Assembly (NCBI GenBank): GCA_017499595.2
Contig: CM039000.1
Span: forward strand, 124,001-188,000
Length of the DNA stretch: 64,000 nt
Direction of reading: 5' to 3'
Origin: Psilocybe cubensis
Lineage: Eukaryota
This document shows, in pieces, positions 5,909 through 11,270 of this stretch. The translations under genes and the position numbers were made by a program. Numbering within the stretch: the first letter of the stretch is position 1; every line of letters starts with the position of its first letter. The notes beneath the pieces were generated by a model. The model saw only the letters and a program-made list of their open reading frames with translations, did not search any database and had not been told where the DNA came from.

Positions 5909-7201
5909 TTAATAGTACTACTACTACTTAATACTAATAACCCAAACACACGCAAAACAACGTCACTGTAACGAAGCTTCGAAACTTCCAGTCCAGAAGC
6001 CAGCCCAAACTCACGAAGCACCTTCAAAAGTACAAATTCTGAATCACATTCTATTACTAATTTGTACCTGAAGGTGGCAAAATGGACCCTGACGATCTCA
6101 CTCATTCTCACCGTTCCCATTGCCCAGACTTCAGTCATCTAAAAAGTTATGGTCCAAGTTGAATCCAATGGATTCCAATACCGAGGTAATGCTGAATTGG
6201 AATCGGTCGACGACAGTGTAATACTTGACAACACCGACCAACCATGAACATTGAATCCTAATCCAAACCTCTCATGTTTCCCAGAAAAGGAGACCGAATC
6301 CAAACCCAATAGAATTACCAGTGTACACTACATACCACAAAGAGACCCAGCACAATCAACTAAAACAATTAAAACAACAGCAAGACGAAAACGAAAAAGA
6401 AAAGGAAAAACGAAAAAGAACAAAGGAAAAAGGAAAGGTAACATCAATCCATAGACGACGTCAGCGACACAAAACAGGAACAGAATAGGTATATCAAATA
6501 GCGAAAAGCGAATACAGACAGAGATGAAGACGGAGACCGAGATGGGAGATAAAACAGACATATTTTTTTGTTTCAAGGCGCAAAGGTGGGTTTTGTACTA
6601 ATACGAATACTGTAAACGAATACTGTAACGAATACTAATACTAATAAAAGAAGCAAATCAAACACAAAAAGAAAAAGAAAAAGAAAAGTAGGGCAGAGAG
6701 GGTATTATTAAAGTAACCAATACGTAGAGACATAGACATAGAGAGGTAGAGAGGTAGAGAGACACAGATACGAAGCGCAGAAAAAGAAGAGAGAGAGAAA
6801 CAGAGAAAGAAAAAGGGAAACAGAAAAAGAAAAAGAAAAGAAAAGAAAAGGAGCAGAAAGAGTTAGTAGATGGTGTAAGTAAAGCAGACAATAGACGATA
6901 GCCAATAAGCAAGCCAGTAGTTGATAGGACTATAATACGATAGAGTGGGTCTGGTGGGTGTGTGGGTGGTGGTGGTATTAACACAAACAAATCAAATCAA
7001 ATCAAAGAAAAAAAAAGAAAATCGAAAATCGAAAACGAAAACGAACGTGTTTGCACCTCTCGAAAAAACAAAACAACAACAGAAGACCCGAAGAAACACC
7101 AAGTCCAAAGTCGAAAAAAGAAAAAAGAAAAAAGAAAGAAGAAAAAAGAATGAGAATCCACATTACAATCGCCATCGCCATATCATACAACCTCAACAAC
7201 C

Positions 7202-7813
7202 TCAATCCAACAACGAAGGCGGCGTAAGCCCAGCTTCAAATTTGACATTCACCATGCCCATATCCATACCCATACCCAAGCCCATGTCCATACCCGCGCC
7301 CATACCAACTCCTACACCAACACCAGGCCCAACACCAACGTCCATGCCAACCATATCAAACGACGACGCCTGCTGCTGCTGCTGCTGAATCTGCTGCTGC
7401 TGTTGACGAAGATGATGCGGATGCGAATGCTGTCCCATCGCACCAACATTCATATCCATCTCATCAAACGGCACAAAAGGCGGTTCCACAAACTGCGGGC
7501 TCCCGCTCCCATGCGCATGTCCATGCGCATCTACAAACGCCTGCTGATGCGCATGTGGGCTGACGCTATTGCTGAAACCCTGTTGATGTGCATGTGGACT
7601 GACGCTGACGCTATTACTGAACCCCTGCTGATGCGCATGTGGACTGACGCTGACGCTGCTGCTGAACTGCTGCTGATGCGGGCTAGCACTGAACTGCTGG
7701 TGGTGCGGGCTAGCACTATACTGCTGCTGGTGGTGTGGATGTGGATGCTCATCAAACCTCGGCGCATCAAACTCGTACTCGTACTCATACTCATACCCCA
7801 TCGGTCCTATACC

Positions 7814-7852
<39 letters not shown>

Positions 7853-10504
7853 GTGCTGCTGATGCAACTCAAACCTCCTCATCTCGCTCTCCTGATGCTG
7901 CTCGAAACCTAGCGGCGACGGGGGAAGACGCCGCGGACTCGCTCCCTTCCCTCTCCCTCTCCCCATCCCACTCACGCTCGTACTCGGGCTGACGCTGCTC
8001 TCTCCACCTATGCGCATACTCCTCCCTATCCCGCTCGCGCTCTCGTTCACGCTCACGTCCAAACTCCCGCTCGCGCTCGCGCTCGCGGAGGAGCTGCCGG
8101 GCAACGACGCGCGGCGTGGGGGTAGGCGATGCAGAGGGCGTGGGCGATGAGCTAGATACGGATGCGGATGCGGATGCTGGCGAGCGTGCGTTTGCATATG
8201 CCCCGTGTGCTGCTGCGAAACCTGATGCTGATGCGGATGAGATGGTAGGGGATGCGAAGGCGGACCCATACGCCCCTGCCCCTGGCCCTGAGAGGCGAGG
8301 AGAGGCGTCATAGCCGGAGGATGATGAGGCTGGTAAAACTCCTCTTCCCTCTGCTGCTGCTGCTGCTGCTGGTTGTGGAGATCCACCATCTGCGCCTGCA
8401 CCTGCACCTGCGCCTGGGCTTGAGCCTGATGCTGATGATACACCAAATACTGCGCCTCCTGCTGCCGCCTCAGCGCGTCCGAATACTGCATTTGCTGAGC
8501 CTGCTGCTGAGCCTGCTGCTGGTGCATCTGACTCGGACTCCCCCCTTCCCGACCCTGACCCTGCTCCGGACGATTGGGCGGACTGCTGCTGCTGTTGCTG
8601 TTGCTGCTGCGCGAGGAGGAGGTGTTGATGCACGCCAGCGAAAGGCGGCGGGCTGACACTTCCCGCGCCATGCCCATGCCCATGTCCTCCTCCAACCCCA
8701 AACCCAAACCCTCGCCCCCCGCCCCCGCCCCCGCCTCCGGATCCACCGCCAAACCCGCTCCCAGGCCGTCCAGAGCTATAGGAGGAGAAGTACCCTGAAT
8801 CCCTCTCTCTATCTCTCCCTGACCCCGCCCCCGCGCCTGAGCCAGACCCGGAGCTGGACCCGGAGCCTGAAGAGCAAGAAGACGCGGGCTCGTCGAAGAT
8901 GTGCAGTCCCGAAGTGGACGAGACGAGCCCGAGGCCACTCGCAGTAGTCGGTCTGCTCCCTCCGCTCCCTCCGCCTCCGCCTCCGCCGAATCCACCCCCT
9001 CCACTACTGGCGAACCCGAGCCCGCGCGAGCTCGTCGGTCTCCCAAACCCTCCTCCCGCAGCAGCTGCTGCTGAGGCGGATAATAAAAACGCTCCAGAGC
9101 CCGCGGCGAACCCCCCTCCCGCTCCCGCTCCCGACCCTCCAACAAACTCAAGTCCGCGGGACGACGTAGGTCGAACGAGATCGTTGCCGCTCCCGTCGCC
9201 GTCGTCGTTGCAGAGCTCCATGACGGAGAGGCGGCGCGAGGCGGGACGGGACTCGGCGCCGTAGTCGTATCCCTGTCCCTGTCCCGATCCCGCTCCCGAT
9301 CCCGCTCCTGGTCCCGATCCTGGCTGGTGGTACTGGTGGGAGGCGAGGCTGAAAGTGGTGAGCCCTGTCCCTGTTGCTGATGATGGCGAAGCATGCCCAT
9401 GTTCGCGGTCGCGCTCATACTCGAACGGGCCATCTGGCCCGCCGAACGCGCGTTTCCGCGGGTTCCCTGTCCCTGTCCCTGACCCTGCTGCTGCATGTGC
9501 GCTTGGAGATGGAGATACTCCATGTACTGCTGCTGCTGATGCTGTTGCGGATGAAGAGGCCGGAGCGGGACTTGGGTCTGGGGGTGGAGGGTGGAAGAAA
9601 AAAGGGGAGGCGTCGGGCCCTGCACCGGGACTCGTCGGCTGCTCTCCTCCTCCTCCTCCCGCGCCTCCTCCCGCTCCTCCTCCTCCTGCCTCCCTCGCCC
9701 GCTCATATCCTCCCAACCCAAATCCCCCGGAGCCGGACCCGGTACCGGGCCGGCCAAATCCGGAGTGTAAGAGGGATAACTCTGGACGTCCGCCGCCGCT
9801 GCTGCCCAATCCGCCATGCCCAGCTCCATTGGCATGTCCATGTCCATGCCCATGTCCATGGGCATTTGCATGTGCATTGGAACTTGCATTGGAACTTGCA
9901 TTTGCATTGGCTGCTGCTGCGGATGCGAGCCCATGGGAGGATAGAGGCCGCGCGGCGAAGAACGAGAATGCAGACGCGACGGCGGCGGGCGCTGTGCCGG
10001 GGCGGGTGGCTGTCCCTGGGCGGCGGAGGAGGTCGAGGTGAGGGTAACTGGGGTACTGGGATTGCTGCTGGTACTGCGAGCCTGCTGAGGCGGCGGCATG
10101 GCCGGGAAAGGAAAGTACGTGCTGTTCTCCTCTGAGATGGGCGGGGTAAGCAGGATGGTGGGAGGCCCCATGTGCTGCTGATGATGAGGATGTGGGAGCT
10201 GTTGATGAGGATGGTGAGGATGTTGAGTATGTGGTGTGAGGAGGGAGTGGTGGTGAGGGGAGGGAAGCGGAGACGACTGCAGCGAGCGGCGGGAGAGATC
10301 GTGCATGCGGGTCGGCGGGAGGACCAGCTGCAGATTCGGTGGCGCCCGACGCTGTGGCGGGCCCGGCGGCGGGGATACTTGAGCTGCTGGTGAAGGCTCG
10401 AAAGGAATGGGACTGGGCTGCGGTGCCAGCTGCTGGGTGGGGGGAGGAAGGTGAGATGGGTGAGGTGGACGATGAGGGGGCAAGAAAGGACTGGCTGGGG
10501 CCAC
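7202..10504 (-). CDS. Overlapping +1-frame ORF (1100 codons, Gln/His/Pro-rich); predicted trans-frame C-terminus of the C2H2 factor
   Basis: Stop-free from 10546 to 7202, same strand as the C2H2 gene and +1 relative to it. The track's start codon is the GTG immediately after UCC_UUU_C (10511-10505). It extends about 222 codons past the zero-frame stop and ends [14 protein letters not shown]. Confidence 0.7.
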
Positions 10505-11270
10505 GAAAGGAATGGTTGTGCCGCCGCTGTTCGTCCTGCCAGTACATCATCGCGCTGTCCCCGCCCTCGTTGCCCAGGCTCGTTCCGGGGCGTTGGTGTT
10601 GTTGGTGATGGTGATGATGCATCGGCAGCGGGCCCATCTCCTCCTGCTTGATCATCATCGCGTCGTCCTGCTCGTGCATCGGCGACAGCCCGTGGCCATT
10701 CCCGTTGCCGTTCCCCACCGGCGACTGCAGCGAGGAGGAGGAGGAGGAGATAGGGGGCCGGCGGGCAGAGCGGGCAGCGGCGCCGCCGGCCTTGTTCTGC
10801 GCGGCCATGGTAGCGTGCAGCGAGGTGAGGTCGCGCATCATACGCTCGTTCTGCTCCTGCTTGTCCGCATGCACCGTCTGCGCGTGCTGCCGGAGGTTGT
10901 CCAGCCGCGAGAACTGCTTGCTGCAGTGGCACGAAAACGGTCTTTCCCCCGTGTGTTTTCTGTTTTTTCCCCACATGAGAACTCATCAGAAAAGTCAGAA
11001 AAAAAGGACAGCGCACCGGATGTGCCTTGCGAGATGCTCGCTCCTGGAGAAAACCATGCGACACTCGCCGTAGCCACGGCACTGAAAGGTCTTTGCTGGA
11101 GCGGGTCTGTACCGCTTGTTGACGCCGCCCAGGGGCCCCCCGGGCATATTCGTCGCGCTCCCATTCGCGACCATAGCAGCCATCGCAGCGTCAGAGGCAC
11201 TAGTAGCAGCAGAAGAGATAAGTTGATCAGGGGGAAAATGATCAGGGGGAGACGGCTGGTCGTGGTCCAT
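7869..11270 (-). CDS. nsdC: C2H2 zinc-finger transcription factor of the NsdC/Usv1/Rgm1 family; zero-frame product about 1114 aa
   Basis: ATG at 11270 (MDHDQP), exon 1 11270-11017, 57-nt GT-AG intron 11016-10960, exon 2 10959-7869. Spliced fingers [54 protein letters not shown] match the Usv1/NsdC pair. C-terminal part has RPGT/RPTT/RPTS motifs and [10 protein letters not shown]. The symbol is a family-level assignment. Confidence 0.85.
10503..10511 (-). other. Candidate +1 programmed ribosomal frameshift site UCC_UUU_CGU
   Basis: In-frame TCC TTT CGT (S-F-R) in the zero frame, 12 codons after the last +1-frame stop (TGA 10549-10547). Same motif as the influenza A PA-X +1 shift site. Confidence 0.65.

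Follow-up and report, generated by a model that had tools for sequence, protein, structure and literature searches.

The sequence YCC_UUU_CG is an experimentally validated cassette for +1 ribosomal frameshifting, and it needs no 3′ RNA structure (PMC11451614). In influenza A virus, PA-X is generated by a +1 shift at UCC_UUU_CGU, during which tRNA-Phe re-pairs from UUU to UUC (PMC3498833; PMC11451614). Conserved cellular +1 sites of this kind are found in human PLEKHM2 (UCC_UUU_CGG) and ASXL1 (UCC_UUU_CGU) (PMC11451614; PMC5644247); for PLEKHM2, the proof comes from a reporter and a junction peptide, and its +1 open reading frame (ORF) ends ~240 nucleotides (nt) after the site (PMC11451614). 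In Agaricomycotina, ribosomes shift +1 on UUU in the antizyme mRNA (PMC5009743; PMC4505036). Conserved programmed frameshifts in nuclear genes are described as very rare (PMC11451614). Here, we discuss a gene of the fungus Psilocybe cubensis, which is located at positions 7202 to 11270, on the minus strand, of a 64,000-nt stretch of DNA (referred to as "the window"; GenBank assembly GCA_017499595.2, contig CM039000.1, positions 124,001 to 188,000). The gene appears to encode a two-finger C2H2 transcription factor of Agaricomycetes, and its mRNA is almost certainly dual-coding from codon 236 on, with selection acting on both frames. A +1 ribosomal frameshift of the PA-X/PLEKHM2 type at UCC_UUU_CGU is the probable means by which the mRNA gives rise to two transcription-factor isoforms.

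Two overlapping reading frames and their conservation

Exon 1 (11017..11270; all gene features discussed here are on the minus strand) contains the start codon (ATG at 11270) as well as the first C2H2 finger, and its 3′ end is in phase 2 (..CAC ATC CG), as judged from the sequence, Pfam and the orthologue alignment. It is followed by a 57-nt GT..AG intron (intron 1, 10960..11016), which is removed in record 13 of run X2, where 10959 is joined to 11017 (CT..AC on the plus strand). Exon 2 (7869..10959) encodes, in frame 0, the second finger, the linker and a Ser/Pro/Ala/Gly-rich tail up to the stop at 7871-7869. The initial annotation drew attention to two same-strand ORFs of more than 1000 codons that overlap for about 2.6 kb, and the ORF list agrees: the zinc-finger-frame ORF at 7869..10982 has 1037 codons from stop to stop, the +1-frame ORF at 7202..10546 has 1114 codons, and the two share 2678 nt (7869-10546). 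The +1 frame is closed upstream by the TGA at 10547..10549 and opens at 10546. Twelve codons later, TCC TTT CGT at 10511-10503 sits in the zero frame and, together with the next base, forms the proposed shift site UCC_UUU_CGU_G (10502..10511; P-site UUU, A-site CGU); the positions of the TGA and of the site were verified in the sequence. A second copy of the motif, TCC TTT CGA (10398..10406), lies 35 codons downstream of the first. After the shift, the +1 frame (7202..10504) would add 1100 Gln/His/Pro-rich codons before its stop at 7204-7202, its last 16 residues (7205..7252) matching the ..K[FY][ED]SPSL.TPPL.LE* ends of the orthologous +1 ORFs. The predicted shared N-terminus has 236 residues, that is, exon 1 (11270-11017), a split Arg codon and 151 codons, and past the A-site CGT frame 0 runs on for 880 codons. 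The arithmetic proposed at the outset, with products of 1114 amino acids (frame 0) and 236+1100 = 1336 amino acids (trans-frame), therefore holds.

How unusual is such an overlap? When synonymous codons of exon 2 were shuffled in the window sequence, 11.1 +1-frame stops were expected and 4 were observed, all upstream of 10546, and 0.04% of 5000 shuffles contained an open +1 run of at least 892 codons. The +2 frame of the window likewise beats this null (P 0.003), which indicates that the null is lax for repeat-rich sequence; hence, the window alone is suggestive and not decisive. A window-only profile of GC content by codon position hinted at a frame change near 10520, a signal that is confounded by amino-acid composition. 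The evidence that we regard as decisive is the comparison with orthologues.

A scan of metagenome contigs identified 80 orthologous loci, 79 of which have the finger linker. Merging near-duplicates left 46 distinct loci and, with the window, 47 sequences; 36 of these loci are complete (37 complete sequences with the window), while 10 run off their contig. Comparison of the frame-0 ends with named proteins suggests that the loci include relatives of Hebeloma, Lactarius, Suillus/Rhizopogon, Boletus, Scleroderma, Leucoagaricus, Amanita and Thelephora. From the site to its end, the +1 frame is uninterrupted up to its own terminator in 37 of 37 complete sequences, for which synonymous shuffles expect 2.0–6.9 +1 stops per sequence (P(0) between 0 and 0.07 each). 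The ten incomplete loci are likewise free of +1 stops up to the contig end, such that the conserved open frame for which the initial annotation had suggested a test is present in 47/47 sequences. Over the same span, the +2 frame has 4–24 stops in the complete sequences. Upstream, between the finger and the site, the control region carries 133 +1 stops against 146 expected in 6814 codons, with at least one in every one of the 47 sequences. The +1 ORF opens 32–467 nt upstream of the site, the nearest cases being L011 (−32), the window (−35) and L003/L004 (−44). At the other end, the +1 stop is positioned exactly 8 nt before the frame-0 stop in 35 of the 36 complete orthologous loci, the exceptions in stop spacing being L067 (+139 nt) and the window (+667 nt). 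This fixed spacing indicates that the two C-terminal ends, ..TPPLLLE* and ..GMRV*, are one stretch of DNA.

Codon by codon, the shift motif itself is also conserved. Downstream of RPGTSTGYE, the first xFR is spelled exactly TCC TTT CGT in 42 of the 47 sequences; the five other spellings are TAT TTT CGT, TCC TTT CGA (twice) and one each with CGC and CGG. TTT_CGN is thus found in 47/47 and YCC_TTT_CGN in 46/47; the test of TCC TTT CGN suggested in the initial annotation thus has a positive outcome. With the codon usage of the single-coding upstream part (TTT 0.54, TCC 0.24, CGT 0.40), the chance that S-F-R is spelled TCC TTT CGT is 0.053. Moreover, 31 of the 47 sequences hold two to four in-frame copies of YCC_TTT_CGN, typically 7 codons apart (CAT TCC TTT CGT GAC CCC GGC CAG TCC TTT CGT/CTT GCC). 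In frame 0, the S-F-R of the proposed site is part of HSFR[DG]P.QSFLAP, which is common to all six closest orthologues. Orthologues that lack the motif or have stops throughout the +1 frame had been named as the outcome to look for against a frameshift; the motif is kept and the +1 stops are zero.

The pattern of substitutions also changes at the site. Alignments were made within 11 groups of close relatives, and the fraction of variable columns was determined for each frame-0 codon position. Upstream of the site, these fractions are 0.095, 0.065 and 0.386 at positions 1, 2 and 3, respectively (1379 codons), which is the pattern of ordinary single-frame coding. Downstream, they are 0.119, 0.045 and 0.111 (3721 codons). 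Frame-0 positions 3 and 1 correspond to +1 positions 2 and 3, respectively; the downstream pattern is therefore that predicted for two coding frames, and the fall at the third position amounts to the suppressed synonymous variation for which the initial annotation had suggested a test. In bins of 10 codons, third-position variability is 0.33–0.50 at codons −140 to −41, drops to 0.02 at codons 0–9, where all three codon positions are almost invariant, and then stays mostly at 0.06–0.25 to codon +450. One pair, L007/L011, was excluded from the binned analysis; these two loci differ in 116/378 columns upstream of the site and in 3/1054 downstream, and chimeric assembly or recombination between lineages is possible. 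Just past the site, lineages alternate between CCC GGC and TCC AGC, which changes frame 0 from PG to SS and is silent in the +1 frame (TPA), and +1 V[TSA]PA is retained while frame 0 varies. When this constraint is combined with the positions of the closest +1 stops upstream, the frame change can be placed within an interval of ~40 nt that ends at the GUG codon after UUU.

Predicted products of the two frames

The +1 tails of 15 diverse sequences, read from the GUG that follows the shift, can be aligned with each other (alignment A2), and the shared motifs include RR.S.EA.YL, S.IHP.F and K[FY].SPSL.TPPLLLE. In the window, the +1 motifs VAPASPF (10484-10504), NSTYFPF (10106-10126), ..DW..VQSYPSY (9767-9817) and SPSWSSATT (9203-9229), as well as a 16-residue block (8444-8491), sit between long repeat insertions. 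A profile search with A2 identified 96 protein clusters among 1.84 billion representatives, and a sequence search with the +1 tail gave 18 proteins, including entries annotated as stand-alone hypothetical proteins in Boletus reticuloceps, Macrolepiota fuliginosa, Serpula lacrymans and Hydnomerulius pinastri. Composition-corrected BLAST of the window +1 ORF against 120 annotated orthologues resulted in no match at E<1e-3, and tblastn gave two marginal +1 matches. The window +1 tail appears to be too repeat-rich for pairwise detection, its homology becoming visible through the C-terminal ends and the motif alignment. Pfam searches revealed no domain in the 15 +1 tails and none in either tail of the window gene. 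An AlphaFold model of the +1 tail, which the initial annotation had likened to an activation or prion-like domain, predicts disorder (mean predicted local distance difference test score, pLDDT, 50.5) save for one helix, which is modeled at residues 300–343 of the L007 tail (block-mean pLDDT 81–94) and spans the HYSQEL..RR.SEEA.YL motifs. Alignment A2 thus shows conservation of the +1 product at the protein level.

A protein search with frame 0 resulted in 230 relatives, and the analysis used the best 120 of these; the named proteins among the best 120 are all Agaricomycete C2H2 proteins. Frame 0 aligns to the closest listed orthologues over residues 1–690 with ~40% identity (E 1e-75 to 1e-89), and its conserved motifs include a 15-residue block (10257-10301), a 13-residue block (9201-9239) and SRPTT..LHIFD (8892-8957). 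The 13-residue block, the most conserved motif of frame 0, and SPSW(N/S)SA(M/T)T, the most conserved motif of the +1 frame, are the same DNA. Within this block, RRLS presumably fits the RRxS consensus for protein kinase A. The idea that frame 0 is wrong downstream and that a hidden intron joins the two frames was rejected, since conservation of frame 0 extends past residue 690 and the transcript contigs match the genome colinearly.

Two adjacent C2H2 fingers with their connecting linker are present in the window gene, and the orthologues carry PF00096. Exon 1 matches Pfam zf-C2H2 with E=0.0036, below the curated cut-off, and the second finger of the window gave no match to Pfam zf-C2H2. This second finger (10890-10958) has an unusual Cys-x-Cys spacing (S-C-H-C). 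The orthologues are named in their sources "Up in starvation", "Nutrient and stress factor 1" and "Biofilm and cell wall regulator 1"; Usv1/Nsf1-like or NsdC/Usv1-type is hence a label only, taken solely from names given to orthologues.

The public gene models carry traces of both frames. The 120 listed proteins have two kinds of C-terminal end: most end in ..DQVR..SP...A.GMRV, and eleven in ..[MI]K[FY]E..L.TPPL.LE. The window +1 ORF ends in the second type (TPPL.LE-like, 16 residues). The eleven models with this second end depart from frame 0 at eleven different predicted introns, and the models P0136 and P0148 use two further join points. P0055 and P0119, which are models of one species, differ precisely by the type of end, and P0119 departs from frame 0 just before the HSFR motif. 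The two types of end and the scattered exit points suggest that the same DNA is read in two frames and that the introns were invented by gene callers. Public models accordingly disagree with each other: frame 0 is followed in most of them, others switch to the +1 frame, and in several genomes the +1 ORF is annotated as a hypothetical protein of its own. The N-termini of the ORF-caller models P0001, P0003 and P0043 are in the wrong frame of exon 1.

In P. cubensis, frame 0 ends 667 nt before the +1 frame, and a count of stops shows the intervening stretch (7202..7868) to be open in the +1 frame only, with 15 further frame-0 stops past 7869. Here, the ancestral ..GMRV end of frame 0 can still be recognized in broken form, whereas the +1 frame continues uninterrupted up to its conserved end. 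Differences between strains were also considered; 20 inside the gene are listed, and the 5.5 kb compared contain 51 more than the listing shows. The two listed single-nucleotide polymorphisms (SNPs) upstream of the +1 ORF are synonymous in frame 0. Within the overlap, five of eight listed SNPs are synonymous in the +1 frame and nonsynonymous in frame 0, one is the reverse and two change both products, and five of the ten listed beyond the frame-0 stop are +1-synonymous. In the lineage of the window, the +1 isoform thus seems at least as constrained as the frame-0 isoform. Within the gene, every listed strain indel has a length divisible by three (3 to 12 nt). The same holds for three insertions immediately beyond the +1 stop (7190-7196: +3, +9, +12); their occurrence outside the coding sequence indicates that repeat-unit slippage, and not coding constraint alone, shapes the indels.

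Around the gene, transcript-like contigs reach ~11809, which gives a 5′ leader of roughly 540 nt, and on the downstream side they extend to ~6860. All four runs have an extra C after 11324. Downstream of the gene, positions 6000-7200 form an A-rich stretch of low GC content (0.36–0.45) with an AT skew of up to 0.58 (plus strand).

Probable mechanism of access to the +1 frame

From the sequence comparison, we infer that the +1 frame is translated and that it is accessed by ribosomal frameshifting. In the proposed mechanism, most ribosomes would stay in frame 0 and make the 1114-residue protein with its Ser/Pro/Ala/Gly-rich tail. A fraction would shift +1 as tRNA-Phe on the P-site UUU re-pairs to UUC while the A-site CGU is empty. 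The shifted ribosomes would then read 1100 more codons, resulting in a 1336-residue isoform with the same DNA-binding N-terminus. The tail of this isoform would be Gln/His/Pro-rich and mostly disordered, with one conserved helix and an end of the ..KFE..TPPLLLE type. It is plausible that the gene in this way provides two regulators with one DNA-binding domain and different effector tails, the ratio between them being set at translation.

Frameshifting is the most economical mechanism because the frame change maps to the motif, the motif is a validated +1 cassette, +1 shifting on UUU is known from the antizyme mRNA of Agaricomycotina, and transcripts run colinear with the genome across the overlap. 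With respect to the latter, record 13 of X2 has intron 1 removed and is then unbroken over 9937-10959. Over 7560-9937, contigs from the window's species are fragmentary; joints with 20–24-nt sides, and loose ends that also occur in DNA-like runs, were regarded as artefacts of repeats. Six of the orthologous loci have no intron 1 and look like transcript contigs (L010, L016, L023, L025, L033 and L065). Compared with the genomic locus L017, L016 has a sole gap of ~44 nt at intron 1 and is otherwise colinear over 2034 nt, and L065 compared with L056 has a 66-nt gap at intron 1 and is colinear over 2180 nt. These colinear contigs indicate that both frames still overlap in the mature mRNA of two other species, as they do in the part of the window's mRNA that was sampled. 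No splice that gives access to the +1 frame was seen in X2 (9937-10959), L016 or L065, and in all seven transcript-like contigs (X2 and these six) the normal intron-1 acceptor is the only one used. No thermodynamic signal of RNA structure was detected in roughly 90–130 nt of flanking sequence around the site in the 47 sequences (mean z −0.1 to −0.3).

Several observations weigh against this interpretation. Translation of the +1 frame is deduced from the comparison of sequences. Many of the 47 sequences are related, with 11 groups and singletons being distinguished, and the counts are therefore not those of independent events. Dual coding (S-F-R over P-F-V) would itself fix TCC TTT CGT, and conservation of the motif alone is thus no proof of the shift point. 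CGT is not rare, as it makes up 40% of the Arg codons in the single-coding upstream part; the slow-A-site rationale offered for influenza and PLEKHM2 is consequently not supported by codon frequency. Third-position variability is lower (0.16–0.28) already at codons −40 to −1, a fall that could reflect a nascent-peptide or mRNA stimulator or, alternatively, alignment effects. In 16 divergent sequences, the frame-0 tail is better conserved than the +1 tail (identity 0.43 vs 0.36); among the 120 pairs, 116 have the higher score in frame 0. The X2 contig is transcript-like, and among the listed runs of the window's species none is on record as RNA. Finally, an in-phase CAG that the intron-1 donor could use is located at +15 to +24 nt in 36/47 sequences, and assembled contigs, which show the major isoform only, are blind to a minor spliced one.

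This last point bears on the alternative that fares best, in which the +1 ORF is translated via a minor, alternatively spliced mRNA. The intron-1 donor (phase 2) would be joined to the in-phase CAG past the site, skipping the second finger, or a local intron would change the frame; TCCTTTC would then be a pyrimidine tract. That public gene models bridge the frames with predicted introns is what such splicing would produce, yet the join points of the eleven second-type models all differ and those of P0136 and P0148 add to the scatter, as expected from ab initio guesses. Eleven of the 47 sequences are without a CAG at +15 to +24, three are without any in-phase CAG up to +30, and a local GTRNGT..YAG intron of suitable length class is found in no more than 10/47, all of one lineage. 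In addition, between the site and the CAG, the sequence changes in the manner of a +1-frame coding sequence, and a pyrimidine tract needs neither TTT over TTC in 47/47 nor CGT. The initial annotation had itself named splicing from the donor at 11016 as a competing route; as far as the major isoform is concerned, nothing of this kind was seen in contigs of the window's species (9937-10959) or of two other species (whole overlap), and what persists of it is the minor isoform, which we consider unlikely.

A less probable alternative still is that the +1 ORF is translated separately, from an internal transcript start or by non-AUG initiation (e.g., at the GUG of CGU_G), to give a protein without zinc fingers. 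It would account for the annotations that list the +1 ORF on its own, and GTG follows TTT C in 42/47 sequences. These stand-alone models, however, stem from ORF and gene callers and do not count as evidence of expression. The GTG is missing from the sequences with CGA, CGC or CGG, no conserved AUG is found where +1 conservation begins, and the transcript contigs span the whole gene. The weakest alternative, that frame 0 alone is translated and that the open +1 frame and the low synonymous variation are by-products of low-complexity composition or of RNA/DNA-level constraint, draws on the low complexity of the tails, the +2 frame of the window that also exceeds the shuffle null, and the lack of a significant composition-corrected match; it is hardly tenable given the absence of +1 stops where 2–7 are expected with the upstream control at expectation, the suppression that begins at the site, the +1 stop fixed at −8 nt, the conserved +1 motifs (non-repetitive ones included), the window frame open in +1 alone past 7869, and the missing structure signal.

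Returning to the frameshift, one may speculate that it acts as a nutrient sensor, a reading that we regard as doubtful. Under amino-acid or nitrogen starvation, scarce arginyl-tRNA would leave the A site at CGU (one to four such sites occur in tandem) empty for longer and thereby increase +1 slippage, moving a starvation/stress regulator from its Ser/Pro-rich to its Gln/His-rich isoform. Translation would then be the switch between two antagonistic factors across the sampled Agaricomycete orders. Under the same speculation, the +1 isoform would be the more strongly selected one in the window's lineage, because frame 0 is truncated there and the SNPs favor the +1 frame.

Comparison with known systems

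If the interpretation is correct, the influenza-type UCC_UUU_CGU cassette occurs in a fungal developmental or stress regulator. Given the inconsistent public gene models, functional studies of this regulator may have missed an isoform. Full-text literature searches, with supplementary files outside their scope, found no published description of this case. The fungal examples of programmed frameshifting that we know of are antizyme, EST3, ABP140 and the Ty elements, and a dual-coding region of 385–1100 codons with selection on both frames is, to our knowledge, among the longest for a cellular gene. The locus would accordingly represent a YCC_UUU_CG-type +1 frameshift candidate that is unusual in its kingdom, its tandem sites, the length of its overlap and its two-sided conservation.

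A fungal precedent is the antizyme mRNA of Agaricomycotina, which belongs to the same fungal group and also involves a +1 shift with UUU in the P site. The antizyme A site is a stop codon, the shift senses polyamines via the nascent peptide, and the zero-frame product is a short dead end. In the gene discussed here, the A-site codon is the sense codon CGT (CGU in the mRNA), such that the zero-frame stop typical of the antizyme type is lacking, and both products are long.

Two proteins are also made from overlapping frames of INK4a/ARF and GNAS XLas/ALEX, through alternative first exons or start codons. The likeness lies in two conserved proteins being encoded by overlapping frames of one locus. 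Here, unlike in those loci, the transcript contigs are colinear and the predicted products share a 236-residue N-terminus.

With PLEKHM2 and ASXL1, the gene has in common that it is nuclear, that a conserved YCC_UUU_CG stands at the 5′ end of a conserved +1 ORF, and that no alternative transcript was found, here as far as the assembled contigs show the major isoform; moreover, the argument is built in the same way, from the motif, the conservation of the ORF and synonymous constraint. It differs in that those genes are from vertebrates and this one is from Agaricomycete fungi, in that the +1 ORF is 1.2–3.3 kb long, and in that the present case is known from sequence alone.

With PA-X, the gene shares the site itself: the nine-base zero-frame motif is identical, the shift proposed here is likewise in the +1 direction with tRNA-Phe re-pairing from UUU to UUC, a 3′ structure is not needed (and none was detected here), and the outcome would be a shared N-terminus with a new C-terminus. 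The +1 extension of PA-X comprises some tens of codons. In contrast, the gene of P. cubensis and its orthologues are cellular and fungal, their frames overlap for 385–1100 codons and end at nearly co-terminal stops, two to four copies of the site are present in 31/47 sequences, and CGU is a common Arg codon.

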